Assembly (NCBI GenBank): GCA_000991245.1
Contig: LBRD01000001.1
Location: 69,467-133,466 of the forward strand
DNA from: Parcubacteria group bacterium GW2011_GWC1_36_108
GTDB lineage: Bacteria; Patescibacteriota; Minisyncoccia; Moranbacterales; GWC2-37-73
Direction: 5' to 3'
Length of the DNA: 64,000 nt
Positions 3,668 through 36,996 of the stretch are shown here, in pieces. The translations under genes and the position numbers were made by a program. Below the pieces are notes generated by a model. The model ran no database searches and was not told the origin of the DNA. It worked only from the letters and a program-made list of their open reading frames with translations. Within the stretch, counting starts at the first letter, position 1. Each line of letters starts with the position of its first letter.

Positions 3668-3806
3668 TTTCAAAAGTTACGCATTTCGAAACATTTCTTT
3701 TTTGGCCAATTGTCGGCGACAGCGACTCTTTGAGCTTTTGGATATTGAGTATTTATCCAAAAGCGTGCCAAATAAGAAATAGTTGAGAAAATGCGTAAGT
3801 CCTAAT
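3668..3806 (+). ncRNA. Copy 1 of a ~138-nt conserved structured element (candidate small RNA)
   Basis: Terminal stem ttacgcatttcg/gaaaatgcgtaag, internal 4-bp stem gtcg-gcgacag-cgac, 11-bp stem gcttttggata/tatccaaaagc. Near-identical copy at 36859-36996. Confidence 0.45.
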
Positions 3807-3807
3807 A

Positions 3808-4413
3808 TTAATATTTTTTACGACCAGCAATAAATCTCTTAAGCCCAGGGATTTTGTCGATCAATTCCAGATGAGATCCTTCGATGAAGTCCAGCAAGAA
3901 ACGATCAAGCATATCCAAACGATATTTGAATTCATCACTGTTCATCAGCACAAAACTCACTTCTTTTCCTATTTCAGCTTCCAAACTGCTCATAACGCTT
4001 TTCAATTTTCCGCGACTAACGTTGTTTGCCACCAAAACCATATCCACTTTGCTTTTTGGATAATTTAGAAAAATACCACTTACCAAAGCTAGTTTAACAT
4101 CCCCAATATTTTTCAATCGTGACAAACTCTTGGATTCAGGCGAAGCAGTTGATTTTGCAAACAAACTCTTAAGTTCGGAATAAAAACAAAAATCTTGATC
4201 GAGTGTATAATATTTTGATCCCTTTTTTGTTTTTTCAACCAAGAATTTTATTTTTTTAAGCTCGCCTATCTCTTTTCGCACAGAAGCTGCTGCCAACATA
4301 TTTTTCTTCGCAATATCAGCAACGCTGTATTCTTTTTCCGAGTTAAGCAAAAAAAATCTCAAGATTCTGGTTTTTGCTTTTGAGCCGAATAGCACTTCAA
4401 GGATTTCTGACAT
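3808..4413 (-). CDS. Hypothetical protein, possible wHTH DNA-binding N-terminus
   Basis: 201 aa ORF; N-terminal region looks like a helix-turn-helix regulator (TRILRFFLLNSEKEYSVADIAK). Confidence 0.4.
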   Translation of the reverse strand: MSEILEVLFGSKAKTRILRFFLLNSEKEYSVADIAKKNMLAAASVRKEIGELKKIKFLVEKTKKGSKYYTLDQDFCFYSELKSLFAKSTASPESKSLSRLKNIGDVKLALVSGIFLNYPKSKVDMVLVANNVSRGKLKSVMSSLEAEIGKEVSFVLMNSDEFKYRLDMLDRFLLDFIEGSHLELIDKIPGLKRFIAGRKKY

Positions 4414-4543
4414 AAGTTTGGCAGTGATTAATAGAAATTAAGTATTTCTCCTGCTTTTAAAAGCAGCAATATTGCCATTATACAATCAATAAAATTAAAA
4501 GTAAACCTCAAATCACAGCCCTTCCCGAGCTAATTGCATTTGA

Positions 4544-7234
4544 ATGAAAATTGCTATATTATATAGAAAGATACTTGAGGGCTTTTTATGCCACAAAAAA
4601 CCAATGTCCCCAAGAAACTCAGATAAAAACAAAGATGTGATAAAAGAACTGGAAAAAACAATTTCCCCAATTTTGGTTGTCAACAATTCCTCATTAAAAC
4701 CATACGTGGAATTATTTGAATACGCGCCAGAAAACATTTACCAGCAACCACTCGGCTCGCTTGTTGGCTTTTTTGAAGTCAAAGAATTCTCCGATGAGTC
4801 TGCCTATGTTGTGAATTTTCTAACTTCTGTTTTAAAAAAGGAATATTATATAAACCCAAAAAGGCCGGTCACGGAAAGTTTGGACAGCGCCCTGCACAAA
4901 GTTAACATTGCCCTTTCTGAATTAGCCAAACACGGGAATGTTGAATGGCTAGGCAAAATAAACGCCGCAATTTGCGTGCTGGAAAAAAACAATGCTCATT
5001 TCAGCGTTTCAGGCGATGCTAAAATCTTTTTATACAGAAATCAAAGTCTTTCCGAAATAAGTGAAGATCTGGCCTCAGATTCTCTTGAACCACACCCACT
5101 GAAAACATTTGTTAATGTTTCCAGCGGACGCCTTGAAAAAAATGACCGGATGTTGATAACTTCAGCGGATATTTTTCATATTTTGCCGATCATTGAAATC
5201 AAAAAGAATTTCCAGCGATTTGAAGGAGACAAATTTGTGCAATTTTTGAAAACTGCACTTTCAAACCAAATAGAAATGATCGCTTCGGTGGTTGTCGAAA
5301 TGAGCGAAGTGATTCCTATCGCAGCAACCAAGGCGCTGCCTCGCAAAAAATCTTCCAAGGCAGTCAATGCTTTCAGCCAACAATCTTTTGCCAGTGCCAA
5401 AGACACTGAAACCTTGGCGCAAGAACAAGAAAATGAATTAGAAATGACAATACTGCCAGCAGATGCCGAACAAGAATATACCGATGAAAAAACTGGGCAT
5501 ATATACGTTCAGGGAGAAGTAAATGAAAACAATGAAAACGCCAATCCCCAAATGAATTTATATTGGGATATGATCAAAGAAAAAATCTCCCAAGGATCAT
5601 ATTTAACCAAAAATGAAATTCGAAAGCGTTTCTCTTTATACAAAAAACAATTAGCAAAAAAGAAGGAGCTTCGCAGAATTGAAAAAGAAAAACAACAGCT
5701 TCTTGCAGCCGAAGAGGCAAAACGTCTTGAAGAAGAAAGGGTTCTGCAAGAAATTCAGCATGAACAACAAATCGCCGAGGAGCAGCAACTTGCCAAACTT
5801 CATCTTGAGGAGGAAAACCAGCGTCAACAAGAAAATCTTGCGCAAGAAAATATTCTCGCAAAAGCGGAAGTAACCAAGAAAAAAACAGCAGCAAAAATTA
5901 AAGTTACAAATATTGACGCAGAAGAATCAGAGAGTGAACCAACCGCAGATTCGCAATTAAGCTTCAAAGAAAAACTTCGCTTAGCAAGATTGGAGCAACA
6001 AGGAAATGCTGTCATTGATCTGAAAAACAAAACTACAAAGGAAACCGAAACATTTGAAGAAGAAATTATTATTCAACCAGAGATACAATTTGAAACTGTT
6101 GAAACAATATCAAAAACAACAAAGTTCAAGGCATTGGCTTTGGAAAATATCAAAAAAATACTGCCACTATCAAAAAAATTAATTGCGCACACAAAAATCT
6201 GGCTCAGCAAAATTGGCGCAATAGCAAAAAATAGATCCCACGTCGCAAAACCAAACAAACTAGCCAACATCATAACTCCTCATTTTTCAAAGATTGGAAA
6301 ACTATTCTCACATTTTTCAGGAAAACAAAAACTGTTTATTCTTTTTGCACTAGCCCTTATTTTTATCGCGCCTCTTTTCATTGTGCGTTTCTTGAACAGA
6401 CCAAAAGCTCCAACAATCGTTGAACTTCAGGATGTGCCATTGACTCAAATAGGAGCATTGGCAAGTGACAAAAACATTGATTTTAACACACAAGTTCAAA
6501 CAATTTTATCAAACTCAAATATCGTTACCGCTTTGATCGCAAACAACAATCCAACAGTGGTGACCAAAAACAGCGTTATTGTTTTACAAAACAATCAACC
6601 AAAAGAATTTCCGATTCCTACCGACTCCGGAGCTGCTGTTTCCGCAACATATATGAAAGATTTGTCCCTTGTTTTAATCTTCACTGATAGCAACAAGATT
6701 CTTTCCTTCAGTCCAATTTCAGAAAAGTTTGCAAGCAACAACATCGATTTATCCAACATTTCATCAGGAAGTCCAATTGGAACATACCTAACATATTTAT
6801 ATATGCTTGATCAAAAAAACAATCAGATTTATCGCTTCCCACGCGCAGACGGTGGATTTGGCGAGAAAACAAGTTGGCTCAAAGATTCAACATCTCTTAC
6901 TAATGTTTCAGAAATAACCATCGACGACAATATTTATGCGATTTCAGATAACAAAATTTTAAAATTCTTCAAAGGCAAAGCTGTTGATTTTTCACTTGAA
7001 TCATCCACCACGCCTATTAACTTTGATAAAATTTATACAACTCCGGACTTGCAAAACTTCTATGCACTAGACACACAAAACTCGCGTCTAGTTTCATATA
7101 GCAAAGACGGCAACATTATTAAACAATATCACAATGAAGCGCTCAAGGACGTGATCTCATTGACAGTAGACGAACAAAACAAACTCGCATACATCGCAAC
7201 TTCAACTGGATTAATTTCACTTTCAATTCAATAG
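4544..7234 (+). CDS. Large hypothetical protein with charged coiled-coil region, one TM helix and a C-terminal domain
   Basis: 896 aa ORF; E/K/Q-rich coiled coil (aa ~340-420), TM LFILFALALIFIAPLFIV, Asn-rich C-terminal region. Confidence 0.5.
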   Translation: MKIAILYRKILEGFLCHKKPMSPRNSDKNKDVIKELEKTISPILVVNNSSLKPYVELFEYAPENIYQQPLGSLVGFFEVKEFSDESAYVVNFLTSVLKKEYYINPKRPVTESLDSALHKVNIALSELAKHGNVEWLGKINAAICVLEKNNAHFSVSGDAKIFLYRNQSLSEISEDLASDSLEPHPLKTFVNVSSGRLEKNDRMLITSADIFHILPIIEIKKNFQRFEGDKFVQFLKTALSNQIEMIASVVVEMSEVIPIAATKALPRKKSSKAVNAFSQQSFASAKDTETLAQEQENELEMTILPADAEQEYTDEKTGHIYVQGEVNENNENANPQMNLYWDMIKEKISQGSYLTKNEIRKRFSLYKKQLAKKKELRRIEKEKQQLLAAEEAKRLEEERVLQEIQHEQQIAEEQQLAKLHLEEENQRQQENLAQENILAKAEVTKKKTAAKIKVTNIDAEESESEPTADSQLSFKEKLRLARLEQQGNAVIDLKNKTTKETETFEEEIIIQPEIQFETVETISKTTKFKALALENIKKILPLSKKLIAHTKIWLSKIGAIAKNRSHVAKPNKLANIITPHFSKIGKLFSHFSGKQKLFILFALALIFIAPLFIVRFLNRPKAPTIVELQDVPLTQIGALASDKNIDFNTQVQTILSNSNIVTALIANNNPTVVTKNSVIVLQNNQPKEFPIPTDSGAAVSATYMKDLSLVLIFTDSNKILSFSPISEKFASNNIDLSNISSGSPIGTYLTYLYMLDQKNNQIYRFPRADGGFGEKTSWLKDSTSLTNVSEITIDDNIYAISDNKILKFFKGKAVDFSLESSTTPINFDKIYTTPDLQNFYALDTQNSRLVSYSKDGNIIKQYHNEALKDVISLTVDEQNKLAYIATSTGLISLSIQ

Positions 7235-7473
7235 ACTCTTTTCCACATTTCTTTTTTCCGCAAAAAGAAACCTGGAGGAAAGAAAAGCTCGCACCGGATG
7301 AAGATACTGTGGCAAAAACTTCGCTCTTCACTAAAATTTACACTGCGCGCCTACGCTTGCTAGCGGGCGCTACGTTTCAAAATTTCTTAACGCTCATCAC
7401 TCGTTTTTCGCCTACGTACTTCATATGGTGCAAAGGGAATGCGGAATGCGAATACATACAGGAGCGAGAATGA

Positions 7474-7566
7474 TTTTTCTTTTTTCACTTAAAACAAGTC
7501 TCATTGGCGTTATGTCAAAAGTTGCAATTGTTTTTCTGTGACAAAAAGAAAAAGGCATTCGAACGA
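7474..7566. repeat. Copy 1 of a ~95-nt hairpin element
   Basis: Inverted termini ctttttcttttttcac / gtgacaaaaagaaaaag around a conserved core ttaaaacaagtctc..ttgg.gtta..aaaagttgcaattgtttttct. Second copy at 27801-27896. Confidence 0.6.
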
Positions 7567-7644
7567 TGCACGCAGAACGCCTTTAAGAAGTGTAAACACT
7601 ATCTTTATATTATACACCTAAATCATCAAAAAGTCAATGGTAGA

Positions 7645-7677
7645 GCAAAAAACGGCTAACGATAGCCGTTTTTTGAT
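7645..7677. terminator. Bidirectional rho-independent terminator between convergent genes
   Basis: Perfect hairpin aacggctaacgatagccgtt with A-run upstream and T-run downstream. Confidence 0.7.
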
Positions 7678-7712
7678 GTATGTATTTTCCTAACAAGCTA
7701 AAAAGCTAAAGC

Positions 7713-10199
7713 CTAAAAAGCTGATTCCTTCATTGCGCTGCGTGCAAATTGGGCGCGCTGCATAATCTCACGGTTCACAATGGCAGCGTCGCGGCCATAT
7801 TTGAGGCGTGACAGCTCTTTGAGATAATTGGCAGCTTCCTGATTACCTCTGGTTGGTGGATAAAATTTAATATTAAATGGTTTGGAAAGTTCCCCATTAA
7901 CAAGCATTCTCGTGAAACCACTATAATTATCAACGTTGACCAAATCATTAGCAGTAAAAATCGGTTCGAATTGTTTTTCCAAAAACTCTGCGTCTTCCGG
8001 TCCAACTCGCAGCGCCACCATTGAACCAACATTACCAAAAACTGCCTTGGAAATTTCTTCCTTGAGTTGCCCAATAAATTGATGTGCAATAATCAGACAC
8101 AAACGATATTTTCGCGCTTCAGAAAGAATTTGAGAAATTGATTCAGTTGTAACATTTTGAAATTCATCCAAATAAAGATAAAAATCGCGACGCTGATCTT
8201 CAGGCATATCGCCGCGCGCCAGCGCATTCATCAAAATTTTTCCCACAATAACCATCCCCAAAAGATGGGCATTAATTTCTCCAATCTTTCCTTTGGAAAG
8301 CTTTACCAACAAGATCTTACCAGAATCCATCACTTCACGGAAATTGATTGTACTTTTTTGCTGCGCGATGATTGGACGCATCATATCATTAGAAACAAAA
8401 GTGGTAAGTTTGGAAGTGATATATGGAACCATATTGGCAAGTGCCGCTTCCCCGCCAGCTTTCTCAGCTTCTTTGATCCAAAAATCTGAAACCACAGGAT
8501 TGTTGCATTTGGACAATTTCATTTTGCGGAAATCTTCATCAGCCAAGACCTTGGAAATTTCCATAAGCGTTGAGCCTGATTCAGGATCTTCCATAATAAG
8601 GAGCATTGCATTTCGCACATATTGTTCAAACATTGGACCTCCCGTAGCTTTAAGATCATACAATTGATCAAAAATACCAATCATTTCATTAATCACAAAA
8701 GTTTTTTGCTCAGGATGACTTGGGTCATATTCCAGCATATTAAGTCCAAATGGACGCTCCATATCGGATGGATCAAACACAATCACATCTTCCGCGCGCT
8801 CTTTTGGAATGGCAGTTAAAATATCTTCAATCGCATCTCCGTGTGGATCAATAAAGCAAAATCCTTTGCCGTCGCGCGCATCTTGTTTGGCCATTTCCTG
8901 CAAGAAATTTGATTTACCAACACCAGTTTGACCGATAGTATACAAATGTCTTCTTCTGTCTCCATCGCTAAGTCTGATGTCAGTTTTTACCCCACGATAA
9001 TCATTATAGCCAAGCACCAAACCTTCTTTTGGAATATTAAGTGGCGGTGGTGCAGCACCTGCCTTCAGCCATTTAATTTTTGGTGTTTCAGTGGTAGAAA
9101 TTGGAAAATGAAAAACACTGGCGATTTCTTCGGTAGACAAAATAATAGAATGATCTTCGTCAAAATTTCTGAAGATATAATCAAAAGATATTTTTTTGGA
9201 CTTTATTCTTTTTTGCACCACAAAATGATTGACGTCGTGATTTTCAAATTGCGCAAAAGCATTTTCCATATGCGCCAAAATTTCATCTGCCTTTTGTTGA
9301 GTCATTGCAGAGGCAAGCAAGCGAATATTAGCTTTGAATCCAGCCTTGCCAGATTTTGCTTCGATTTTCTTTACAAGCTCCTGCTCTTCAGGAGTAAGTT
9401 GCACTGATTCTTTGTGCATAATTTCCTCCTTTGGCTTGTTTTGAATCACTTGCACCATACCTTTTCCAAGATCCATTGCAATCGAACTTGAATGAGCATC
9501 TTTAAGTTGTTTTCCTTGTTGCATCTTGTGTGCGATTCCTCTTCCCAATTTTCTCCAGTTTTTTCCCGCAGGACGCAAAACAATTTGAATCGCCGCACCT
9601 TCCCCTTCTGTTTGCAGTTTACTAAGCGCATTTGAAATTTCGTTGAGCGGGTCAACATCAATATTTTCATATGTAAGAACTGGCAAAGCATACGAACGTT
9701 TAAGTCCAAGTGTTGCAGCAGCAGTAAAGCTCCCCGGCGAAAAAATCGTATAGTCAGGAATTTTTTCAATAGAAGCGTGTGGGAAATATGAATGAACTTG
9801 CTTCTCAATACTGTCACGAAATTTCTTCGGCACTGCCAAATAAAAAGAAATTTCCTCATTTCCACAAGGATTGGCAATTTCAAGTGCCATATATGGCTCG
9901 CTATACAAAAAATGAGCCCAGAGTGATTTTTTTTCTTTAATATTAGAAAGTGTCGTAAGCAATTGCTCCATCGCACCAATTTCCTCTTTCCAAGCCTCCC
10001 CATTTTCACTTCGCTCTCCTTTTTCCTTGAAAATTTTTGTCACTCGCACGACTTCCAAGTCCATATTCATTGAACGATTGATTTGAGCACGATAATTCAA
10101 AAAACTTCGCACAACTAAAAAAGCACCACTAAAAAGAGTCAGTGTGGCAAAAACCCAAAGCAAAGGGACGAGGATGGTGTTGAGGTCAAGAGTATTCAT
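7713..10199 (-). CDS. VirB4/TraC/TrbE-like (AAA_10/HerA-like) secretion or conjugation ATPase with N-terminal TM helices
   Basis: 828 aa; N-terminal TM helices; Walker A GQTGVGKS at about aa 425; Walker B YLYLDEFQN followed by IIAHQ. Confidence 0.55.
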   Translation of the reverse strand: MNTLDLNTILVPLLWVFATLTLFSGAFLVVRSFLNYRAQINRSMNMDLEVVRVTKIFKEKGERSENGEAWKEEIGAMEQLLTTLSNIKEKKSLWAHFLYSEPYMALEIANPCGNEEISFYLAVPKKFRDSIEKQVHSYFPHASIEKIPDYTIFSPGSFTAAATLGLKRSYALPVLTYENIDVDPLNEISNALSKLQTEGEGAAIQIVLRPAGKNWRKLGRGIAHKMQQGKQLKDAHSSSIAMDLGKGMVQVIQNKPKEEIMHKESVQLTPEEQELVKKIEAKSGKAGFKANIRLLASAMTQQKADEILAHMENAFAQFENHDVNHFVVQKRIKSKKISFDYIFRNFDEDHSIILSTEEIASVFHFPISTTETPKIKWLKAGAAPPPLNIPKEGLVLGYNDYRGVKTDIRLSDGDRRRHLYTIGQTGVGKSNFLQEMAKQDARDGKGFCFIDPHGDAIEDILTAIPKERAEDVIVFDPSDMERPFGLNMLEYDPSHPEQKTFVINEMIGIFDQLYDLKATGGPMFEQYVRNAMLLIMEDPESGSTLMEISKVLADEDFRKMKLSKCNNPVVSDFWIKEAEKAGGEAALANMVPYITSKLTTFVSNDMMRPIIAQQKSTINFREVMDSGKILLVKLSKGKIGEINAHLLGMVIVGKILMNALARGDMPEDQRRDFYLYLDEFQNVTTESISQILSEARKYRLCLIIAHQFIGQLKEEISKAVFGNVGSMVALRVGPEDAEFLEKQFEPIFTANDLVNVDNYSGFTRMLVNGELSKPFNIKFYPPTRGNQEAANYLKELSRLKYGRDAAIVNREIMQRAQFARSAMKESAF

Positions 10200-10204
10200 T
10201 TTTG

Positions 10205-10360
10205 TTTTATATTTATTTTAATGCATTCATGATACGAATGTTACGAATGACCTTCTACGAATGACGCTAATATGCAAATCAGCCTTCGCATTTTTATTCG
10301 CATCATTAGCATATTCGCGTATTTGCATACATTTGCATAATTCGTATAATTCGTATCAAA
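10205..10360. repeat. Palindromic array of acgaatg/tgcgaat/tgcaaat-type octamers (family R)
   Basis: Left half has forward units (tacgaatg, gctaatatgcaaat); right half has the reverse-complement units (attcgcat, atttgcat, attcgtat). Confidence 0.7.
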
Positions 10361-10798: not shown

Positions 10799-10799
10799 A

Positions 10800-10862
10800 A
10801 GTTTATAATACTAATTATGCGAATGTATGCAAATACGCGAATATGCTAATGATGCGAATTCA
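10800..10862. repeat. Half-array of forward atgcgaat/atgcaaat/atgctaat units (left arm)
   Basis: ctaattatgcgaatgtatgcaaatacgcgaatatgctaatgatgcgaatt. Confidence 0.65.
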
Positions 10863-23295: not shown

Positions 23296-23392
23296 TCAAC
23301 CATGTAGCATGTAGCATGTAGCATGTAGCAAGAGCTTTTTAAAACTCTCCGCATTTTTGTTATATGTTATATGTTGTATGTTATATGATTAA
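23296..23392. repeat. Tandem heptamer arrays (catgtag)x4 and (atgttat)-type
   Basis: catgtagcatgtagcatgtagcatgtagca ... atgttatatgttgtatgttatatg. Confidence 0.7.
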
Positions 23393-24524: not shown

Positions 24525-25796
24525 TTAATTCTTTTTTAACAATATTTGGGATATTTCCTGTGCACATTTCTCCCAACTGAACCTTTTCACGTTCTCCAAT
24601 CCTTTCTGTATTATAGCATTTTTTAGGGTTTCGTCCGAGATGAGCTTAAAAATATTTTCGGCAATGTCCTGAGGGTTTTGGGGATCGACCAAGAGGGCTG
24701 AGCAATATCCGTTGTCATTCCCGTGAAAACGGGAATCCAGACCCTCTCCTGCATGCTTAGCCCTGGATTCCGGATCAAGTCCGGAATGACAAGATGCAAC
24801 CTCAGGAATAGATGAATTATTGCTAGCCACGACAGGGCAACCAACACTTTGCGCTTCCAAAACAGGAATTCCAAATCCCTCATACAGGGTTGGAAAAACG
24901 AAAACATCCGCCTTTTTTAATAATTCCCATTTTTCTTCTTCACTCACAAAACCAAGCTCGACAATGTCGTCGCAACATTTAACCTTTGACATTTGACTTT
25001 TGACATCTTGATAACCAAATCCAGACTTCCCAGCAAGAACTAGTTTGTGCGGAATATTATATTTCTCTTTCAAAATCTCAAAAGCCTTAACAATATTGGA
25101 AATATTTTTTCTTTCCTCAATGCGACCAATAAATAAAAGAAATTTCGAATTTCGAATTTCGAATTTCGATTGAATTTCTAATGTTTTAATTTTTGAAATT
25201 TGATCATTTGGATTTGATTGGAAATTGGAAATTGGAAATTGGAAATTCCGCTCCCCGCGGCTATACCCTTCGTAAATTACAGATATTTTTTTACTATCCA
25301 CGTTATATAATCTTTGCAAATCAAGCTTTGTATTATTCGACACTGCAATAATTGAACTCGCCCACTGACATGATTTCTTAATCGTTCCGCGCATATAAAT
25401 TCTTTCCCAAGAAGAATATGCTTTTGGACAAAATTCATATTCCAAACCGTGAATCACAACTATTGTTTTTTTGGGATGGATGATTGGAACAGTGTGCGCA
25501 GGAATAAAAAGCACATCAACCGGATGCAACAACATTTCCAAAGACAAGCCAATCTGCGTCCAAAATCTAGGAAATTTAATGACCTTTATTTGCCAACTTT
25601 TTGGCAATTCCAAATCATTAATTTTAACAACTCCGTTGTAAGTTGTAAGTTGTAAGTTGTTAGTTTTTTTAACATACAAAATAACCCGCTGATCATTTAA
25701 TTTATCACGCAGGTTTTTAATAACTTGATATGAATATTCTTCAATTCCAGTTCTGTTTTTTATAAAAGCCCGAGAGCCATCGATTCCTATGATCAT
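24525..25796 (-). CDS. GT4-family glycosyltransferase carrying a palindromic-element insertion and several in-frame oligomer-repeat insertions
   Basis: YEGFGIPVLEAQSVGCPVVAS GT4 motif. Likely start at MIIGIDGSRAF (25796); the ORF-track start at 25838 would read through repeat DNA. In-frame inserts: element copy B (CHSGLDPESR...LDSRFHGND), cgaatttc x3, ttggaaa x4, ttgtaag x3. Confidence 0.6.
   Translation of the reverse strand: MIIGIDGSRAFIKNRTGIEEYSYQVIKNLRDKLNDQRVILYVKKTNNLQLTTYNGVVKINDLELPKSWQIKVIKFPRFWTQIGLSLEMLLHPVDVLFIPAHTVPIIHPKKTIVVIHGLEYEFCPKAYSSWERIYMRGTIKKSCQWASSIIAVSNNTKLDLQRLYNVDSKKISVIYEGYSRGERNFQFPISNFQSNPNDQISKIKTLEIQSKFEIRNSKFLLFIGRIEERKNISNIVKAFEILKEKYNIPHKLVLAGKSGFGYQDVKSQMSKVKCCDDIVELGFVSEEEKWELLKKADVFVFPTLYEGFGIPVLEAQSVGCPVVASNNSSIPEVASCHSGLDPESRAKHAGEGLDSRFHGNDNGYCSALLVDPQNPQDIAENIFKLISDETLKNAIIQKGLENVKRFSWEKCAQEISQILLKKN
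24712..24792. mobile_element. Palindromic element copy B, 81 nt, inserted in frame in the GT4 gene
   Basis: TIR ttgtcattcc/ggaatgacaa; hairpin modules cccgtgaaaacggg and ccggatcaagtccgg; ggaatccag/ctggattcc. Confidence 0.7.
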
Positions 25797-26904: not shown

Positions 26905-27005
26905 TAAAAAATTTCTAATTACTAATTTCTAATTTCTAAACAATTTCCAATGATTCAATTTTTAAATCCTAATTTCTAATTTCTAATTCCTAACTCCTAA
27001 AATCT
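26905..27005. repeat. Tandem (ctaattt/ctaattc)n array
   Basis: taattactaatttctaatttctaaa...cctaatttctaatttctaattcctaactcctaaaatc; extends into the 3' end of the next CDS. Confidence 0.65.
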
Positions 27006-27896: not shown

Positions 27897-27915
27897 CTAA
27901 AGCACAGAAACAAAA

Positions 27916-29319: not shown

Positions 29320-30726
29320 TTACTTCAACTTTTTAACCGCGTCTCGAAATTTATCCCCGCGATCAAATTCATTAGCAAAGAGTCCGAAGCTGGCAGCCCC
29401 TGGCGAAAGCAAAACGACATCGCCTTGCTCAGCTTTTTTTTGAGCCAGTGCAGTCGCTTCTTCCATGGAACTAACTATTTCAATATTATCTAAAAATTCT
29501 TTGTCAGCAATTTTTCTAATTTTTTCAAGCAACTTATCAGTCGCGTTACCTTTGAGTAAAACAACATCTTTTGCTTTTTCTAAAATTTCTTTTGCAAACT
29601 CGGCAAAGTCCAGATTCTTATCCGTTCCACCTGCAATCAAAACAATTGGTTTTTCAAAAGCATTAAGACCAGAAATAGCTGCGTCTGGAATTGTTGCCGC
29701 GGTGTCATTGTAATATTTCACACCGTTAAGTTCGCGCACAAATTCCAATCGATGAGCAACGCCTTTCAATTGCGGCAGAGCCTTTTTGATTTCTATTGCA
29801 CTTAATCCCAATGCATAGACAGCTCCAATTGCAGCCATCACATTAGAAAGATTATGTCTCCCTGGGATAAGTACGTCTTTAATTGCAACTAACTTTTTCA
29901 CATCAATTCCATTGTTGAGGTATATTGCATCATCCTCAATAAACACGGCTCTGCTGCGCTTAAGCGGCTCATATGAAAAACGCACGACTTGTGCAGGCAC
30001 TTCTTTGGTTGCCTCCCTGAGAAGTTCGTCATCATTATTCATAATTAGCCAATCCTTGGGTTTTTGATTTGTAAAAATATATTTTTTATCCTGAAAATAT
30101 TTTTCCATCGTGCCATAATAATTCAAATGATCAGGCATAATATTTTTAAACACAGCAATGTGCGGACTAAGTTTTGCTCGCCCCAAAGCAGAAAGACGCC
30201 AAGAGGAAAGTTCGAAAACCACCACTGAATCTTTCTTCAGCAGCAGCAATTTATCCAACACCGAAACTTGTCCAATGCCAATCTTTATCGGGTTTTTTCC
30301 TACTGTTTTTAAAATTTCATATATAAGAGTGGCGGTAGTCGTTTTTCCCTTGGTACCAGTCACTCCAATTATTTTGTTTTTGCAAATCTTAAAAAAAAGA
30401 CTAGAGTCCATTTCGACCGGAACTTTGTTTTCAAGAGCAAACTTGATATGTTTGTCCGACCATTGCGCTGCTGGATTTTTTATTACCATATCAACTTTGG
30501 AAAAATCTTCCATCCGATGATGACCCAAAACATATTCCACATTTTTAAGTCCCTTGAGTTTTTCTAGTGATGCGCTAAGCTGCTCCTTTGTTCGAAGATC
30601 AGTTGCTATAACCTTAGCTCCTTGCGCAACCAAAAATTTCACCGTGCCGACTCCGCCACCGTGAAGACCAATACCCATTACTGTTATTTTTTTGTTCTTA
30701 AAAAAGGATAGTTCCATAATGTTCAA
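29320..30726 (-). CDS. murD: UDP-N-acetylmuramoylalanine--D-glutamate ligase
   Basis: 468 aa; Rossmann N-terminal domain (VMGIGLHGGGVGTVKFL), Mur ligase P-loop GTKGKTTT. Confidence 0.8.
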   Translation of the reverse strand: MNIMELSFFKNKKITVMGIGLHGGGVGTVKFLVAQGAKVIATDLRTKEQLSASLEKLKGLKNVEYVLGHHRMEDFSKVDMVIKNPAAQWSDKHIKFALENKVPVEMDSSLFFKICKNKIIGVTGTKGKTTTATLIYEILKTVGKNPIKIGIGQVSVLDKLLLLKKDSVVVFELSSWRLSALGRAKLSPHIAVFKNIMPDHLNYYGTMEKYFQDKKYIFTNQKPKDWLIMNNDDELLREATKEVPAQVVRFSYEPLKRSRAVFIEDDAIYLNNGIDVKKLVAIKDVLIPGRHNLSNVMAAIGAVYALGLSAIEIKKALPQLKGVAHRLEFVRELNGVKYYNDTAATIPDAAISGLNAFEKPIVLIAGGTDKNLDFAEFAKEILEKAKDVVLLKGNATDKLLEKIRKIADKEFLDNIEIVSSMEEATALAQKKAEQGDVVLLSPGAASFGLFANEFDRGDKFRDAVKKLK

Positions 30727-30823
30727 TAATCAATAGTAAAAAGTCAATATACACCAAAAAATAAACGAAGTAAAGCAACACCCTACTTACTGAATTTTGT
30801 ATATTACATTTTGTATATTGTTT

Positions 30824-32416
30824 TTAGAACTCAAACAATGATGACTTTCTGCGAAGTACCACGCCTGCACGCTCTTCCAAGATTTTTCCATTTTTAATTG
30901 CAGGACGACCATTGACAAGTACCCAGTCAATGCCTTGTGAATATTGATATGGATTTTCAATTGTAGCAAGATCTTGAATCTTTTTTGGATCAAAAACAAC
31001 CACATCAGCAAAATTCCCCTCTGCAAGAATGCCACGCTTTTCAATATTAAATTTTTCCGCAGGTAATCCTGACATTTTTCGAATAGCCTCTTCCCAACCT
31101 ACAACACCTCTTTCCCTAACATAATCAGCCAGCACTCTCGGGAATGAACCGAAGTTTCGAGGATGCACAACTTCACCAGTTTCTCTATGTTTAATATCAT
31201 ATCCAGAACCATTTGATGAAACAATTGAAAAAGGATTTATAACACCCTTATCCACATTTTTTTCACTAAGCACTTCCATCATCGTTACTACTCGACCCTC
31301 ACTAGCAATAAGAACGTCGATGATCGTGTCTTCAATGCTTTTTCCTTGAGCCTCGGCAATTTCAGTAATTTTTTTACGATTAAGTGCCTTGTCCAAAGCT
31401 GAAATTGAAATAGTTATTTTTGAATAATCATATTCACTTGCTTTCATTTCTTTAATAACACGTTTTCGAATTTCTGAATCCTTAAGTCGCGAAAGCATCA
31501 TATTGCGACCACCTTCTGTAACCCAATCGGGAAGCAAAATATACAGCACGCTGCCTGTTGACGTGTATGGGTATACGTCGAAATGAACATCAATTCCACT
31601 GGTACGAGCTGTTTCAATCAAATTCAAAGCTTCTTCCATAAGCGGCCAATTTTTCTTTCCCATAACTTTTAGATGTGAGATTTGAAGCCTGACTCCCGTG
31701 ATCTGCGCAACACGAATTGCCTCTTCTACTGCTCTGATAAGTTCGTGCGCTTCTCCGCGAATATGAGTTGTATAAACACCGTTATATTTTTTCACAATCT
31801 CAGCCAATTCTGCAATTTCTCGAGAAGATGCCAATTTGGCGTGAGTATAAACCAATCCTGTTGAAAAACCAAGTGCGCCTTCTTTCATTGCTTGTGTCAG
31901 CATTTTTTTCATCACTTTCATCTCACCTGGGCTGATATCTCGAACTTCATCGCCAACCAAACCTCTTCGAAGTGTTCCGTGCCCCACCAGAGTTGCAAAG
32001 TTTAAAGCAATTTTTTTCTGTTCAACTTCAGCCAAAAATTCTTTCATACTGAGCCAATTAAAACTGACATTTTTCATATCAGTCCATTTTTGAATTGACT
32101 TTATAACACTATGATTAGCCAATGGTGCAAGCGATGAACCGCAATTTCCCCCAATAATAGTAGTAACACCTTGATGCAGCAAACTTTCAAGTACAGGATC
32201 AATAAAAATTCTCCAATATGTGTCGGAATGATTATTGACATCAATAAACCCAGGGGCTATATATTTTTTTGTTGCATCAATTTCAATTTCCGCATGCTCA
32301 TTGTGCAAGTCTCCAATATCAGTAATAACTCCCTCGCGAATCCCCACATCTCCGCGATACATTGGTTTACCAGAGCCATCAACAATTGTCCCATTTTTTA
32401 TGATTACATCAAGCAT
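30824..32416 (-). CDS. Amidohydrolase-superfamily protein, D-aminoacylase-like
   Basis: 530 aa; N-terminal MLDVIIKNGTIVDGSG...GFIDVNNH (first metal-binding HxH degenerated to NNH). Confidence 0.55.
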   Translation of the reverse strand: MLDVIIKNGTIVDGSGKPMYRGDVGIREGVITDIGDLHNEHAEIEIDATKKYIAPGFIDVNNHSDTYWRIFIDPVLESLLHQGVTTIIGGNCGSSLAPLANHSVIKSIQKWTDMKNVSFNWLSMKEFLAEVEQKKIALNFATLVGHGTLRRGLVGDEVRDISPGEMKVMKKMLTQAMKEGALGFSTGLVYTHAKLASSREIAELAEIVKKYNGVYTTHIRGEAHELIRAVEEAIRVAQITGVRLQISHLKVMGKKNWPLMEEALNLIETARTSGIDVHFDVYPYTSTGSVLYILLPDWVTEGGRNMMLSRLKDSEIRKRVIKEMKASEYDYSKITISISALDKALNRKKITEIAEAQGKSIEDTIIDVLIASEGRVVTMMEVLSEKNVDKGVINPFSIVSSNGSGYDIKHRETGEVVHPRNFGSFPRVLADYVRERGVVGWEEAIRKMSGLPAEKFNIEKRGILAEGNFADVVVFDPKKIQDLATIENPYQYSQGIDWVLVNGRPAIKNGKILEERAGVVLRRKSSLFEF

Positions 32417-32617
32417 ATGTTTTGTTTTTATTTTGGTTATTTTACAACTATATTATACAAAATTTTGACACTATTAGCAAGCAACAAAGCAATAATTTTC
32501 AATTTACAATTCACAATTTTCATTTAATTTTCAAATACTTAATTTTCAAATCTAAATTAAAATTTTAGTCATTGAGTCATTGAGATTTTATTGGAAATTG
32601 GGAATTGATCATTGGTA

Positions 32618-32648
32618 ATTTAAAAGGTTCGCAATAATTGCGAACCCA
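32618..32648 (-). terminator. Rho-independent terminator downstream of rnc
   Basis: ggttcgcaataattgcgaacc hairpin followed by a T-run on the minus strand. Confidence 0.55.
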
Positions 32649-32696
32649 GTTGACATAGAAAATATAATTTTGCAATAAAACAAAAAGCGAAGTTTT

Positions 32697-33434
32697 CTAG
32701 ATCCAGCTTTTCGCTTCTAATCCCAATCTAGCGGCTTCCCGCTGAGCTTCTTGTTTTGAATTTCCTTCTCCTTCAGCAACCAATTCATCTGCCAGATATA
32801 CTCCAACCACAAAATGCTTGTCGTGATCAGGTCCCCATTCTTTCATTACGCGATATGATGGTGTTACTTTGCTGTTTTCTTGTGCTTTCTCTTGAAAATA
32901 ACTTTTGGGATCAAGATATAATTTTTTCTCAATTATTTCGCTAAGTTTTGTGGCTACATTTTTCAATACGAATTTTTTTGTAACATCATAACCCTGATCA
33001 AGATATGCTGCACCAATAATAGCCTCCAGTGCGTTAGCCAACAAATATTGCCGAGCACGTCCCTTGTCTTTTGCTTCGCCACGACTCATTAATAAATATT
33101 TTTCAACTCCAATTTCTTGAGAAACAACAGCTAGCATTTCGCCGTTTACCAATGCGCTGCGCCAGCTGGTAAGTTCTCCTTCCGGATTTTTATAATTATT
33201 GTACAAATGTTCAGTAATAATAAGTTCCAAAACTGCATCACCCAAAAATTCCAAACGCTCATTATGGTCAAGCGCATAATCCCTGTTTTCATTCAGATAA
33301 CTGCGATGAGTCACTGCCTGACGCAACAACTCGATATTATCAAATTTAATGCCAATTTTCTTAGCCAAAGACTCTACCATGGAATTTAATGTCAAAACCC
33401 CAATAACAAATGTCAAATAAATGCCAAATGTCAA
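32697..33434 (-). CDS. rnc: Ribonuclease III
   Basis: 245 aa; RNase III signature ERLEFLGDAVLELIITEHLY, C-terminal dsRBD. Confidence 0.85.
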   Translation of the reverse strand: MTFGIYLTFVIGVLTLNSMVESLAKKIGIKFDNIELLRQAVTHRSYLNENRDYALDHNERLEFLGDAVLELIITEHLYNNYKNPEGELTSWRSALVNGEMLAVVSQEIGVEKYLLMSRGEAKDKGRARQYLLANALEAIIGAAYLDQGYDVTKKFVLKNVATKLSEIIEKKLYLDPKSYFQEKAQENSKVTPSYRVMKEWGPDHDKHFVVGVYLADELVAEGEGNSKQEAQREAARLGLEAKSWI

Positions 33435-33510
33435 AATTCAAAAAATTTAAACATTAGGATTTGATTTGAAATTTTTAATTTGAAATTTTTAATTTGAAAT
33501 AATTATTACG
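33395..33510. repeat. Tandem oligomer arrays (aaatgtca/aaatgcca; tttgaaattttta x3)
   Basis: caaatgtcaaataaatgccaaatgtcaaaa ... atttgaaatttttaatttgaaatttttaatttgaaat. Confidence 0.65.
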
Positions 33511-33512
33511 CT

Positions 33513-34013
33513 TCAATTTTTTTCCTCCTCCACTTTTTCTATCTTTTCTTCAGATATTTCCTTATGTTTCTTCGTGCTATCATCTTTCATTGGTTCGCCC
33601 ATTTCGCGATAAATCGTGCCTAGCACACCGTTTACAAAGCGGGCAGAACTTTCGCCGCCAAAAGTTTTGGCAAGTTCAATAGATTCATTGATGGCAACTT
33701 TTGGAGGAACTTCACCATAATTACCATGCATAAGTTCATATATCCCCAAACGAAGAATGTTGCGATCAATAATTGTCACTTGTTCCAAGGGCCATTCAGG
33801 AGCACATTTTTCAATCAGAGCATCAATAGTTGCTCGTTTTTCAAGTGTTCCTTTTGCAAGCGCTTTTACAAATTCGCAGTCCTCAATTCCCGGAGCAAAT
33901 TCCGAGACATTGCGCGCCACGATGTCGGAAATTTGCTCATCGTGCTTACCTTGAAAATCCCACTCAAAAAGAGCCTGCATTGCTACTGATCTTTGAAGGT
34001 GCCTGTTAGCCAT
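33513..34013 (-). CDS. nusB: Transcription antitermination factor NusB
   Basis: 166 aa; [18 protein letters not shown]-terminus typical of NusB. Confidence 0.8.
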
Positions 34014-34115
34014 TGAAGTAACTGATTTTCACGAATTTAAAACGAATTTTCACGAATCACGAATGATCCGTGATCTGTGATTATTAGTTTTACATCTGTG
34101 TTTATCCGTTTATAT

Positions 34116-34313
34116 TTATTTTTTCTTCGCTACTTTTTTGATTGTATTTACAACTTCATTTCCCTTGTAAAATCCACAGTGAGTACAAACTCTGTGCGCA
34201 AGTTTTTCCTTGCCACATTTTGTGCAAGTTTGAGTTTTCACAGTTTCAATTGCAAAGCGATCGCGTTTAGCATCTCGTCGTTGTTTAGTGTGTCGTTGTT
34301 TTGGTACTGACAT
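34116..34313 (-). CDS. rpmF: 50S ribosomal protein L32
   Basis: 65 aa; MSVPKQRHTKQRRDAKR..., CxxC...CxxC zinc ribbon. Confidence 0.75.
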   Translation of the reverse strand: MSVPKQRHTKQRRDAKRDRFAIETVKTQTCTKCGKEKLAHRVCTHCGFYKGNEVVNTIKKVAKKK

Positions 34314-34379
34314 AATCGTGCATAAAAAATAAAGCGTTTCTCTCTAACCGTATCTGGAAAACCAAAGAAGTTTATCTGA

Positions 34380-34440
34380 TAATTTTAGGGTTTTAATTTC
34401 CAATTTCCAATTTCCAATTTCCAATCAATTTCCAATGACC
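34380..34440. repeat. Tandem (tttccaa)n array, reverse complement of the ttggaaa arrays at 25225 and 43676
   Basis: tttccaatttccaatttccaatttccaatcaatttccaatg. Confidence 0.7.
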
Positions 34441-34561
34441 GAATTTTTAAATTTCAAAAATGAAAATGTCGCTCTATTTCTAACTTTTTAAATGTTAAAA
34501 TATCAAAATTATAATAGCATGCATATTGTAATTTGGCAAGATTTAGCAATATTTTGCAACA

Positions 34562-35308
34562 TTATCTTAAGGATGGGTCAATTCCCACAGCCAGAAGCTC
34601 ATTAATCGCTCTTTTGACTGGAGCAAAGCTTTTTCGATGAATCTCGCATGGTCCGTATTTAAAAAGTGCATCCATATGAACCTTCGTTCCGTACCCCTTA
34701 TGTTTATCTAAGCCATATTGAGGGTATTTCGAGGCAAATTCAAGCATCATTCTATCACGAGTCACTTTTGCCACAATCGAAGCCGCTGAAATTGATTTTA
34801 CTAATTTATCCCCTCCCACCACAGCATATTGTTCCATAGAAAGATTTGGGATAACCTTATTGCCATCCACAAGGACTATGTATTTAGGCTCCACATCACC
34901 CCAAATTTCCTGTCCCATGTTGCGTTTAAGCTCCTGGATAGCTTTTTTCATGGACAAAAAACTTGCTTCCAAAATATTAATCCTATCGATCGTTTCATGA
35001 TCGCAAAGTCCGATGCCAATATAAAAATGCTCATTAATAAAATCAAAAATCTCTTCACGCTGTTTTTCTGAAACTTTTTTGGAATCCCGAATAAGATCAA
35101 ATTGCTTTTGTTTGTCAGTGGGAATTTTAAAATTAATATCCTTAAACATTGCAGCGCACGCCAAAACAGGACCACAAAGCGGTCCACGACCAACTTCATC
35201 AGTTCCAATGATATGAGTGAAACCCTGATTAGCAAAATCTTTTTCAAGAATAAATGTTGAAGTCTCCATAAGGGCAGTATAATGCATTTCGCAGAATGTA
35301 TAAAGCAT
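34562..35308 (-). CDS. rnhB: Ribonuclease HII
   Basis: HIIGTDEVGRGPLCGPVLACAA catalytic motif. The real start may be the internal Met (METSTF...). Confidence 0.8.
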   Translation of the reverse strand: MLYTFCEMHYTALMETSTFILEKDFANQGFTHIIGTDEVGRGPLCGPVLACAAMFKDINFKIPTDKQKQFDLIRDSKKVSEKQREEIFDFINEHFYIGIGLCDHETIDRINILEASFLSMKKAIQELKRNMGQEIWGDVEPKYIVLVDGNKVIPNLSMEQYAVVGGDKLVKSISAASIVAKVTRDRMMLEFASKYPQYGLDKHKGYGTKVHMDALFKYGPCEIHRKSFAPVKRAINELLAVGIDPSLR

Positions 35309-35362
35309 AAAAAAATTACCGCCTTTTCAGACGGTAATTTCAAGTATCGAATTTTTTATTTT

Positions 35363-35911
35363 TTATTTTTTAATATATTTTGCCAAAGCTAATCGCGCAG
35401 GCTCAATGCTGACAACTGAAACACCTTCGCAATCAAGATAAAATCCTTTTATGGTTATTGTTTCTGGTTTTTCTTCGGTAGCCTTTTTAAGCTTTGCAGC
35501 TAATGCTGGAGTCAAATCCTCAATAAAAAGCAGGCTGCTTATAATTCCATTTTTTTCTGTTTTAGCTGGGTCTGGCAATTTTTCAATATCTTCTTTTACA
35601 ATTTTAAACATCCAATCCTTTTTTGTTGAACCAGGAATTGTTGTTAATTCATATGTACCTCTCAATGCTGCCTCTCCTTCGTACAGCTTTGCAACACATT
35701 TTCCATCCTCGGGACCATTAACTGGTGCCTGTTGCTTTTTTTCCGGTTGCGCTGCTGGTTTGATTGGCGCAGCCACTTGTTTATTTTCTCCCTTAGCAGC
35801 ACCACCAAACAAACTTTGGCGCACATCTTGAGCCAAGAAAATTCCTCCAACAATAACTGCTGCCAATAAAATCACTCCAGTTGCAAGTTCACTTGCTATT
35901 TTTTTATTCAT
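35363..35911 (-). CDS. Hypothetical exported protein with N-terminal signal/anchor
   Basis: 182 aa; N-terminal hydrophobic helix. Confidence 0.45.
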   Translation of the reverse strand: MNKKIASELATGVILLAAVIVGGIFLAQDVRQSLFGGAAKGENKQVAAPIKPAAQPEKKQQAPVNGPEDGKCVAKLYEGEAALRGTYELTTIPGSTKKDWMFKIVKEDIEKLPDPAKTEKNGIISSLLFIEDLTPALAAKLKKATEEKPETITIKGFYLDCEGVSVVSIEPARLALAKYIKK

Positions 35912-36027
35912 TTTTGTTTACTTTGTTGAACTGTGCAGGGCGCAATATTCAACTGAAGTCTTTTAAAACTTACATATAAATTATACCACAAAGAAAACGA
36001 TTTGCACAGCAATAACAATATTAAGTG

Positions 36028-36474
36028 TTACAAGCAAGGTACCTGTACATCCAAAATATCATCATCCCCTGGAAAAGTCCCCACCCAAAGCATTTGATTA
36101 TTTTTTTCCGCATTTTCAATGATGCTGCGCAATTCGTCAAAGCGCGGATTTGTGTTTGAAAGAAAGAGTGGTGCTGGACGAGGTACAACCTGAATCATTA
36201 AACCAGTTTTTGGCTGCTGAATAAATTCCATTGTTTCCACATAAACATTATTAATAGGTGTTGCAAAATCAACCAATCCTGTGGCAGTATCATATGAAAC
36301 AAAGAAAAAACTATTTTCTGCTGCCACGCGACGAACAAACTGAATATTAAGTTTTCCTAATTCCCCATTTTGAATCCAACATTTTTTTCCATTATCAATA
36401 TCAAAAGAAAAAATATTTTTTGAAGAATCCTCAATAATATTTTCTGCCTTAGTAAAAGCATGCGAGGTTCTCAT
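36028..36474 (-). CDS. Hypothetical protein
   Basis: 148 aa ORF. Confidence 0.4.
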   Translation of the reverse strand: MRTSHAFTKAENIIEDSSKNIFSFDIDNGKKCWIQNGELGKLNIQFVRRVAAENSFFFVSYDTATGLVDFATPINNVYVETMEFIQQPKTGLMIQVVPRPAPLFLSNTNPRFDELRSIIENAEKNNQMLWVGTFPGDDDILDVQVPCL

Positions 36475-36476
36475 AT

Positions 36477-36767
36477 TTATTTCAAAATTATAAAAATGAT
36501 TACTGTCATCAAAGCAGCATCTATAATAAAATTTAGCACATTAAATTTCTCAGTAAGCCCATAGCCAAGAAATTTTAAGGGAAATCCACCATTAGCTTCG
36601 ATTTCGCCCAATGTTCCCTGTTTTGACATTTCAACCATTTCCTTCTTTTGCCGATTTAATTGAAAATTGGCTTGCCAATATCCCACAAAAAATGTCAGCA
36701 CTATTCCAATTAAAGCACTCACAACAAAAACTTTTCCTGATATCATATTTTTATAATTTATTCGCAT
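36477..36767 (-). CDS. Small membrane protein, hypothetical
   Basis: 96 aa with two TM helices. Confidence 0.4.
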   Translation of the reverse strand: MRINYKNMISGKVFVVSALIGIVLTFFVGYWQANFQLNRQKKEMVEMSKQGTLGEIEANGGFPLKFLGYGLTEKFNVLNFIIDAALMTVIIFIILK

Positions 36768-36858
36768 TATTAAACAATTTTTCTATTCCAATATTCATAT
36801 TAATAGTTAAATTATAGCATATTTACAAGAAAAGTTATCCACTTTTTATTCTTAAACT

Positions 36859-36996
36859 GTTTCAGAAGTTACGCGTTTCGAAACATTTCTTTTTTGGCCA
36901 ATTGTTGGCGACAGCAACTCTTTGAGCTTTTGGATATTGAGCATTTATCCAAAAGCGTGCCAAAGAAGAAAAGTTGAGAAAATGCGTAAGTCCTAA
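36859..36996 (+). ncRNA. Copy 2 of the ~138-nt structured element (candidate small RNA)
   Basis: Same three helices as copy 1. Compensatory changes (gtcg/cgac to gttg/caac) and an A to G change that keeps pairing as G-U only on the plus strand. A T-rich tract (gtgtttttcttttttc) follows it. The overlapping ORF 36862..37101 is judged spurious. Confidence 0.45.

Follow-up and report, generated by a model that had tools for sequence, protein, structure and literature searches.

A dispersed structured element of about 134 bp, probably mobile, with two copies in a Parcubacteria contig

The subject of this study is a 64-kb stretch of the genome of Parcubacteria group bacterium GW2011_GWC1_36_108 (contig LBRD01000001.1, positions 69,467 to 133,466), hereafter the window, and a small structured element of which it contains two copies. 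An earlier inspection of the letters alone (the sequence-only reading) described two intergenic sequences of about 138 nt and about 93% identity and proposed that they are a structured small RNA. Both sequences are present where they were reported and both are intergenic in their open reading frame (ORF) context; their identity is 94-95% (95% over 112 nt ungapped and 94.3% over 141 nt by BLAST). Comparison across the family to which they belong set the element boundaries at 3671-3804 and 36863-36995, with a length of 133-134 nt and a G+C content of 33-38%. A covariance-model scan of the window with the filters off identified exactly these two copies and no further degenerate ones, so that the description as a two-copy element holds for the window and not beyond it, since dozens of family copies are present elsewhere. 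The parts of the two copies and their neighbouring genes are listed below by position in the window.

2530 to 3654, minus strand: rmuC (374 aa; PF02646, E 7e-55), neighbour outside the element, its ATG 16 nt from the left end of copy 1
3666 to 3670, no strand: left flanking 5-mer of copy 1, ATTTT, target-site duplication
3671 to 3804, plus strand: copy 1, 134 nt, CAAAAGTTACGC...GCGTAAGTCCTA, covariance model 166 bits, E 1.5e-36
3677 to 3706, plus strand: copy 1, 5' arm of the outer stem P1 (left inverted repeat), 5' side of the G.A/A.G loop within CGAAAC at 3687-3692
3712 to 3726, plus strand: copy 1, hairpin P2, GTCG-G-C[GACA]G-CGAC, stem covarying across the family, tetraloop G and A invariant
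3734 to 3764, plus strand: copy 1, hairpin P3, 11-bp stem and 9-nt loop TTGAGTATT, the most sequence-conserved part of the family
3767 to 3798, plus strand: copy 1, 3' arm of P1 (right inverted repeat), 3' side of the G.A loop within GTTGAG at 3782-3787
3805 to 3809, no strand: right flanking 5-mer of copy 1, ATATT, target-site duplication with one mismatch, overlapping the stop codon of the 201-aa ORF
3808 to 4413, minus strand: neighbouring 201-aa ORF, its stop codon (3808-3810) abutting copy 1
36477 to 36767, minus strand: neighbouring ORF for a small membrane protein of 96 aa, its start 95 nt from copy 2
36863 to 36995, plus strand: copy 2, 133 nt, CAGAAGTTACGC...GCGTAAGTCCTA, covariance model 152.7 bits
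36869 to 36898, plus strand: copy 2, 5' arm of P1, from folding and family alignment
36904 to 36918, plus strand: copy 2, P2, GTTG-G-C[GACA]G-CAAC, from folding and family alignment
36926 to 36956, plus strand: copy 2, P3 with loop TTGAGCATT, from pattern match and family alignment
36959 to 36989, plus strand: copy 2, 3' arm of P1, from folding and family alignment
37283 to 40834, plus strand: neighbouring dnaE (DNA polymerase III alpha), 287 nt downstream of copy 2

Copy 1 occupies the whole spacer from the stop codon of the 201-aa ORF to the start of rmuC, both of which are encoded on the minus strand. The site of copy 2 is a divergent spacer, with a minus-strand membrane-protein/RNase HII operon on one side and dnaE on the other. 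The minus-strand cluster begins with the 96-aa membrane protein and further contains two unknown ORFs, RNase HII and NusB.

Both copies adopt the same fold, in which a long outer stem (P1, about 31 pairs) leads to a three-way junction bearing the hairpins P2 and P3. P1 extends past the G.A/A.G internal loop via the run TTTCTTTTTTGGC/GCCAAAWAAGAAA to the junction; the terminal stem of the sequence-only reading is thus present, with about 31 pairs instead of the 12 assigned to it. The remaining helical details of that reading are seen as described. The short stem shows a double compensatory change (GTCG/CGAC in copy 1, GTTG/CAAC in copy 2), the 11-bp P3 stem GCTTTTGGATA/TATCCAAAAGC is perfect in both copies with the sole difference (T/C) in the loop, and the A-to-G change in the terminal stem of copy 2 remains paired, as G-U, on the plus strand only. 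A pattern for the P3 stem has 2 matches in the window against 0.00 expected. Folding energies of copy 1 and copy 2 are -47.4 and -52.4 kcal/mol on the plus strand and -46.4 and -45.3 kcal/mol on the minus strand, so that the two strands are about equally stable when folded (z scores of -5.5 to -6.4).

Scanning a genome collection with the P3 hairpin identified 31 loci in about nine metagenome-assembled genomes (MAGs) of Moranbacteria/Parcubacteria, which belong to the candidate phyla radiation (CPR), with up to 9 loci per genome. The MAGs are labelled Moraniibacteriota, Parcubacteria or Patescibacteria, plus one labelled Bdellovibrionales. In a metagenome scan, using a pattern with the junction and loop bases fixed and the inner 9 bp of P3 left free, 57 of the 62 stretches found were family members, eight of them on one 232-kb contig and seven on a 484-kb contig. 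A profile search of all loci, here given L numbers, brought the family to at least 68 distinct full-length copies, and the covariance model (R1) recovers family copies at 60-167 bits. Scans of virus sequences (IMG/VR) with the core pattern and the end pattern gave matches at chance level only, none of which was recognised by the covariance model, and a viral origin was therefore rejected.

Young, near-identical copies (the main type) are present alongside older, divergent types within the same genomes, and some copies are decayed (L058, L023 and L012). L075 is identical to the copy-2 region, while L010 (GW2011_GWD2_38_11) is syntenic with positions 453-8038 of the window at about 85% identity. 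The MAG labelled 'uncultured Bdellovibrionales' (contigs CAYVME01...) has four copies (L003, L017, L022 and L029), which form their own subfamily with P2 = ATGCAACGAGAGTGAAT. Its label or binning may be wrong; the element is otherwise specific to Moranbacteria/Parcubacteria.

Alignment of the family defines a core that can be written as TTTTTGGCC-CAAUW-[P2]-UCUUUGA-[P3]-GU-GCCAAAAA, and the best conservation is internal. The stems of P2 vary and stay paired (GTCG/CGAC, GTTG/CAAC, GCCG/CGGC, GCTA/TAGC, GATA/TATC, AAG/CTT and AAA/TTT), while its tip C-GNNA-G is kept, as GACA in 52 rows and GAGA in 14, with the G and the A invariant. Changes in P3 are rare and mostly compensated, with G-C replaced by A-T in L068, L077 and L086, G-C by T-A in L087 and T-A by C-G in L092. 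The outer stem differs by subfamily (TTACGCATTTCGAAAC... versus GCAATGTGAGAC...), yet it remains paired and retains the tandem G.A loop. In a model-based alignment of 83 distinct rows, 90.5% of the cells are paired as compared to 35-56% when the partners are slid, changes on both sides occur at 31 of the 44 pairs, and the covariation score is 0.295 against 0.05-0.09 in controls; these figures are somewhat inflated because the alignment was fitted to the structure. Independent analysis of 31 sequences with MAFFT and RNAalifold recovered the core helices, with compensatory changes in 8 pairs. The substitutions in the collected homologues therefore keep the helices drawn from the two copies, and the conclusion that the fold is real and under selection is supported. 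A pseudoknot between GAGU of the P3 loop and ACUC of the strand joining P2 and P3 was considered and rejected, as its variants occur without covariation.

It could be argued that such constraint acts on DNA, in a host-adopted element similar to REP/BIME, where the palindrome TTTTGGATA-N9-TATCCAAAA and the junction would bind a dimeric DNA-binding or nucleoid protein, or where a cruciform or single-stranded DNA hairpin would serve replication or recombination, the folding of RNA being incidental. P3 is indeed conserved in sequence beyond pairing, the palindrome is found in either orientation with both strands folding equally well, the strand asymmetry of wobble pairs (see below) is equivocal, and the element is conserved at orthologous loci. 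However, P2, with at least seven stems, and most of P1 change freely while pairing is kept, which fits a folded single strand. Moreover, a dimer site would not need the compensation seen among the P3 changes, and motifs such as the G-N-N-A loop and the tandem G.A belong to single strands. An explanation at the DNA level is therefore distinctly improbable.

The ends of the element are inverted repeats. The left end is YAGAAG-TTACGCRTTTCGAAAC (YAGAAG-TTACGC) and the reverse complement of the right end is TAGGAC-TTACGCATTTTCTCAAC (TAGGAC-TTACGC), giving a consensus of 5'-YAGRAS-TTACGC, that is, ends of 5'-YAGRASTTACGC, from which pairing runs about 31 bp inward. Target duplication was examined in 28 non-orthologous copies of the main subfamily by comparing the 5 nt to the left of CAGAAG with the 5 nt to the right of GTCCTA. 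The flanking 5-mers are identical in 5 of the 28 copies (0.46 expected) and agree with at most one mismatch in 14 (2.9 expected), and in none of 20,000 shuffles, in which left flanks were re-paired with right ones, was either value attained (binomial p = 1.8e-7, or 3.7e-4 when corrected for 2,048 boundary and length combinations). Exact 5-mers, which are AT-rich, include AAATT (L026), ATTTA (L081), TATTT (L015), TTTTT (L069) and ATTTT (L010). The last of these is the orthologue of copy 1 and has ATTTT on both sides, where copy 1 now has ATTTT and ATATT. A fixed duplication of 5 bp would point to a transposase or integrase that acts in trans and makes staggered cuts.

With respect to both neighbouring genes, 31 copies are antisense and 16 are sense, and a further 8 and 7 copies are present in divergent and convergent spacers, respectively; these counts are roughly those of random insertion into the spacers of mostly co-directional genomes. 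Many copies are located only some 10-20 nt from both adjoining ORFs. The neighbours are unrelated housekeeping genes, including SecA, YceG, glycosyltransferases, RmuC and DnaE. Clustering of the 730 ORFs from the loci revealed no recurrent transposase, RAYT or reverse transcriptase, the largest paralogous clusters being glycosyltransferases, response regulators, NYN, YceG, SecA and similar proteins. The copies have no ORF in common, and the element is non-coding and well under 500 bp.

Presence and absence at the same site can be observed. At about 50160 in the window, the genes at 49671-50156 and 50163-51074 are 6 nt apart, and L086 has a copy between them. L049 is without a copy that is present in L060, the reverse holds at another site, and L004 is without the L072 copy. 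At one site L060 (1322-1371) keeps only the 5' arm (TAGCAATTTGAGAATATCTTC), where L014 (6693-6848) has a full copy, which suggests that the long palindrome can be lost by internal deletion rather than by precise excision. What had been proposed as a two-copy small-RNA gene is thus a dispersed repeat with terminal inverted repeats, 5-bp duplications, both orientations and variable presence.

We consider it probable, at roughly 70%, that both sequences are copies of a non-autonomous miniature transposable element with inverted repeats (MITE), about 134 bp long, whose sequence is under constraint to fold. A transposase encoded elsewhere would mobilise the element in trans, inserting it in either orientation into short intergenic spacers through 5-bp staggered cuts. 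Since the element usually fills the whole spacer between co-directional genes, its copies are probably co-transcribed within neighbouring mRNAs, where they would form a hairpin of about 31 bp tipped by the three-way junction. By analogy with ERIC and Correia elements, such a hairpin might act in mRNA processing or stability. The unusual conservation described below would be accounted for either by this role or by gene conversion among the copies.

A single-strand route of mobility, as in derivatives of IS200/IS605-type or REP/RAYT elements, or an RNA-mediated, SINE-like one, would make the fold a recognition structure for the enzyme. Internal hairpins conserved above the termini and single-strand motifs on the plus strand are in line with this, as is the 2:1 antisense bias in orientation, which amounts to 51:27 relative to the dominant gene strand and 56:22 relative to GC skew. 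However, IS200/IS605 and REP elements insert without target duplication, and a fixed 5-bp duplication is detected here. In addition, both orientations occur within one 13-kb one-directional locus (L086), and the copies have no adjoining TnpA, RAYT or reverse-transcriptase gene and no poly-A or 3' truncation pattern. This route appears very improbable to us. A palindromic IS200/IS605 element in particular, which would insert beside a fixed tetra- or pentanucleotide, was rejected because of the 5-bp duplication and because P2 is unlike P3, the two not being similar sub-terminal hairpins.

Several observations weigh against the MITE interpretation. The 5-mer duplication is confined to the young subfamily: in 36 divergent copies, whose ends are not precisely placeable, no signal exceeding that of the shuffled control was detected (8 matches against 6.1 expected), and copy 2 has lost it, with flanking 5-mers of TGTTT and AAATG. 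A clean empty site with a single 5-mer was not recovered among the genome pairs compared, these being too diverged. Neither an autonomous element or transposase with matching ends nor unpaired ends turned up in the roughly 850 kb of related sequence covered. The termini are where a classical MITE is most conserved; the present element has its strongest conservation in the internal junction and P3, with an outer stem that differs from subfamily to subfamily. Finally, resident MITE copies normally decay neutrally, and those of this family do not decay freely. Five insertion sites are common to different species, and four of them can be compared cleanly, as follows.

Copy 1 and L010: element difference 4.7% (95.3% identity), flanking four-fold sites 33-42%
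Copy 2 and L040: element difference 8.6% (91.4% identity), flanking four-fold sites 27%
L033 and L049: element difference 3.9%, flanking four-fold sites 33%
L045 and L002: element difference 10.2%, flanking four-fold sites 44%

The fifth pair, L061 and L004, is confounded by a nested insert; at the four-fold sites beside it the difference is 32%. The rate of change in resident copies is thus 3-8 times lower than at the four-fold degenerate sites of the adjoining genes, which are presumably near-neutral. The orthologues (90-96% identity) are, moreover, no more alike than random pairs of the main type (median 93%). For this reason gene conversion is not separable from selection, and the slow change fits either uniform purifying selection to one consensus or gene conversion among copies.

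The same slow change, together with an interior conserved above the termini, would be explained if the element were a mobile, domesticated structured RNA, namely a functional RNA module on a MITE chassis with each copy retained by the host. We hold this to be possible, although rather unlikely. Such a module would have as its core the three-way junction, the hairpin with the G-N-N-A tip, P3, which is invariant in sequence, with its loop of 9 nt, and the tandem G.A loop; its role might, for example, be that of a signal for protein binding or processing.

The alternative closest to the sequence-only reading is a family of independently transcribed, plus-strand small RNAs of about 135 nt. Their junction, tetraloop and P3 loop would serve to bind a protein or a target, and their genes would owe their spread to duplication or to a mobile element on which they hitch-hiked. 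Strong covariation, conservation of the junction and the P3 loop above that of the termini and the purifying constraint at orthologous loci all agree with such a family, which, having no Rfam match, would be new. Covariation of this kind would, however, arise in any element whose folding as a single strand is selected. Both the P2 tetraloop, with its invariant G and A, and the tandem G.A/A.G of P1 are standard motifs on the plus strand only. However, the same motifs form in single-stranded DNA too.

Transcription signals do not favour small-RNA genes. A scan found no consensus promoter or terminator sites associated with either copy, although CPR promoters may differ from the sigma-70 consensus. 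Flank profiles across the family show an AT-rich target context only, with no downstream T-run and no conserved promoter or terminator, and a semi-conserved AT-rich stretch upstream corresponds to the duplicated target 5-mer plus the symmetric target context. The T-rich tract noted earlier after copy 2 is present, but it is not kept across the family. Many copies are about 10-20 nt from both ORFs and leave no room for signals of their own; relative to both neighbours, some two thirds of the copies are antisense and the remaining third sense. A repeat, and not a gene family, would be expected to show the 5-bp duplications, partial deletions, decayed copies and nested insertions seen here.

Wobble pairs give a divided answer on the strand. 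Among unique rows, G.U occupies 136 cells against 77 for A.C, but by pairs the preference is 22 against 15 (sign test, p = 0.32), so the earlier argument from a G-U pair for a plus-strand RNA is equivocal when taken over the whole family. The inner part of P1 and P2 lean to the plus strand (79 against 20 cells; 14 against 5 pairs, p = 0.06), irrespective of gene orientation, whereas the five outermost pairs lean to the minus strand (G.U 10, A.C 31 cells), as does the closing pair of P3 (G.U 0, A.C 16 cells). The G.U:A.C ratio is similar for copies sense (25:13), antisense (80:49) and mixed (31:15) to their neighbours, which suggests that the asymmetry came with the element and did not arise in local mRNAs; selection at the mRNA level after insertion was rejected as its source on the same ground. 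Judging from the G-N-N-A loop and the tandem G.A, the plus strand is the more likely one for the fold to matter. Taken with the transcription signals, these data make independent small-RNA genes unlikely.

Some copies of the element carry further sequences. Four copies at different loci (L004:2343-2562, L011:105-317, L062:3818-4080 and L050:1165-1420) have in common a 66-nt insert (GAGCTTTTCGTCGCTCGCTCGG...CTTCGCTAGA), which in each of them interrupts the 3' arm of P1 at an identical position and has an AAAT repeat at its borders, and the orthologous copy in the sister genome (L061:4412-4563) is without it. The insert could be either a nested mini-element or a subfamily variant, resembling the long variants of ERIC. 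In addition, tiny GC-rich hairpins (CCTGCCTGCCGGTAGGCAGG, 20 nt; others of 28 nt and 56 nt) are inserted in some element copies, as in L005:4354-4373, L081:12758-12777 and L012:2887-2906, and occur free-standing in the same genomes (L004:7262, L012:6265, L039:2809 and L072:10392). Other GC hairpins are located in the P3 loop (L069:11930-12109 and L001:5713-5918). There are none of these hairpins in the window, and they may represent a second, even smaller class of mobile palindrome.

We compared the element with known classes of structured RNA and repeats. Searching the whole window against Rfam 15 at gathering thresholds returned two tRNAs only. None of its families (including hammerhead, twister and other small ribozymes, riboswitches, 6S, SRP and IS605/IscB-associated RNAs) matched at that threshold, in agreement with the initial failure to recognise any named RNA family in the two copies. 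Permissive searches, at E up to 10 for copy 1 and up to 1 for copy 2 and a divergent copy, gave small nucleolar RNA and microRNA noise with E above 0.09. The element nevertheless shares with curated Rfam families its covarying helices, G-N-N-A tetraloop, tandem G.A loop and conserved junction nucleotides. A hammerhead was also rejected by eye, since the junctions (5, 7 and 2 nt: CAAUW, UCUUUGA and GU) are unlike its core on either strand. A cis-regulatory leader or riboswitch was rejected because of both orientations, all intergenic contexts and unrelated neighbours, and an intrinsic terminator because there is no terminator-like site at either copy and no conserved T-run, and because 8 copies, including copy 2, are located between divergent genes.

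Among repeats, REP/BIME elements are GC-rich palindromes of 20-40 bp with a GTAG/CGTC head; an element of 134 nt with 33-38% G+C, no such head and no RAYT-like neighbour does not belong to them. Integron attC sites carry R'' (RYYYAAC) at the 5' and R' (GTTRRRY) at the 3' end, whereas the ends found here, GTTACGC...GCGTAAG, have the opposite arrangement and are lost in divergent copies; the copies are, moreover, scattered among housekeeping genes instead of forming cassette arrays.

Three families of repeats are of a comparable kind. The repeat bcr1 (about 155 bp; Okstad 2004, Klevan 2007), from the Bacillus cereus group, is described as having 5-bp direct repeats and no transposase of its own, and as being transcribed, with compensatory changes that keep a branched fold of two independent stem-loops and with some copies destabilised (PMC3184786). 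Likeness to that account extends to size, dispersal with a non-conserved distribution, 5-bp repeats, lack of a transposase and a two-hairpin fold (PMC3184786). It is a likeness of traits, and the host is Firmicutes there and CPR Moranbacteria here. Furthermore, the hairpins of the present element top an outer stem of about 31 bp, and its orthologues are far more conserved than silent sites.

ERIC (or IRU) sequences of enterobacteria are imperfect palindromes of 127 bp, with short inverted repeats and TA termini and duplication, which cause an orientation-dependent, RNase E-linked destabilisation of mRNA (PMC2229807). The present element is likewise an AT-rich imperfect palindrome of about 130 bp, with tens of copies in intergenic and probably co-transcribed positions and in either orientation. 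Longer ERIC variants, with inserts at fixed internal sites, and an unusual conservation across species were reportedly noted by Wilson and Sharp in 2006; if so, these traits resemble the 66-nt insert and the slow change described above. The differences are a duplication of 5 bp instead of TA, long instead of short inverted repeats and a three-way junction in place of a simple long hairpin.

Correia/NEMIS elements of Neisseria are MITEs, 100-155 bp long and with inverted repeats of about 24 bp, that are co-transcribed and have hairpins cut by RNase III (PMC2229807). They are similar in being small, with inverted repeats and target duplication, and inserted close to genes. They differ in their TA duplication and a possible IHF site or promoter elements, no equivalent motif having been identified in the present element, and they have no internal three-way junction. 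The kind of element is known, namely structured MITE-like repeats such as bcr1, ERIC and Correia. The family itself, with its host group and three-way-junction core, is absent from Rfam, and no description of it was found in literature searches on repeats, MITEs and RNA motifs in Moranbacteria, Parcubacteria, Patescibacteria and CPR. Nor did these searches bring up any account of dispersed repeats or MITEs in Moranbacteria or Parcubacteria.

The genomes of CPR bacteria are about 1 Mb in size, and the spacers between their genes are very short. If our interpretation is true, such streamlined genomes tolerate, and apparently preserve, tens of structured 134-bp elements between their housekeeping genes. 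The family would then provide a covariance model for the annotation of MAGs and a marker of insertion dynamics between close species. It would also be a test case for a MITE kept by selection on its fold, in which a divergence of 4-10% in the element against 27-44% at four-fold sites needs explaining. For the discovery of RNA motifs it would be a caution, because an RNA gene is not demonstrated by covariation alone when the repeat is palindromic.

Some other features of the window may be mentioned. Beside copy 1, positions 4544-7234 (plus strand) encode an ORF of 896 aa, for which no Pfam match was obtained at E up to 0.01 and which has counterparts in L010 and L012. The genes for tRNA-Ile(GAT) and tRNA-Ala(TGC) lie side by side on the minus strand at 55895-56082. 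This pair usually sits in the spacer of an rRNA operon; no rRNA gene was detected in the 64-kb window.

Many intergenic regions of the window contain short tandem arrays of a 7-nt unit, nearly always in about 4.3-4.4 copies. They are located at 23301-23330, 23358-23387, 25141-25169, 25217-25247, 25635-25665 and 26910-26993, and further at 34395-34436, 43675-43705, 48172-48203, 55694-55724 and 55747-55776. The unit differs by site (CATGTAG, TGTTATA, AATTTCG, ATTGGAA, GTTGTAA, AATTTCC, TTGGAAA, TAATTTT, CATGTAA and TGCTATA). Some of the arrays are paired about 55 nt apart, and the near-identical unit pair CATGTAR and TGYTATA is present both at 23301/23358 and at 55694/55747.

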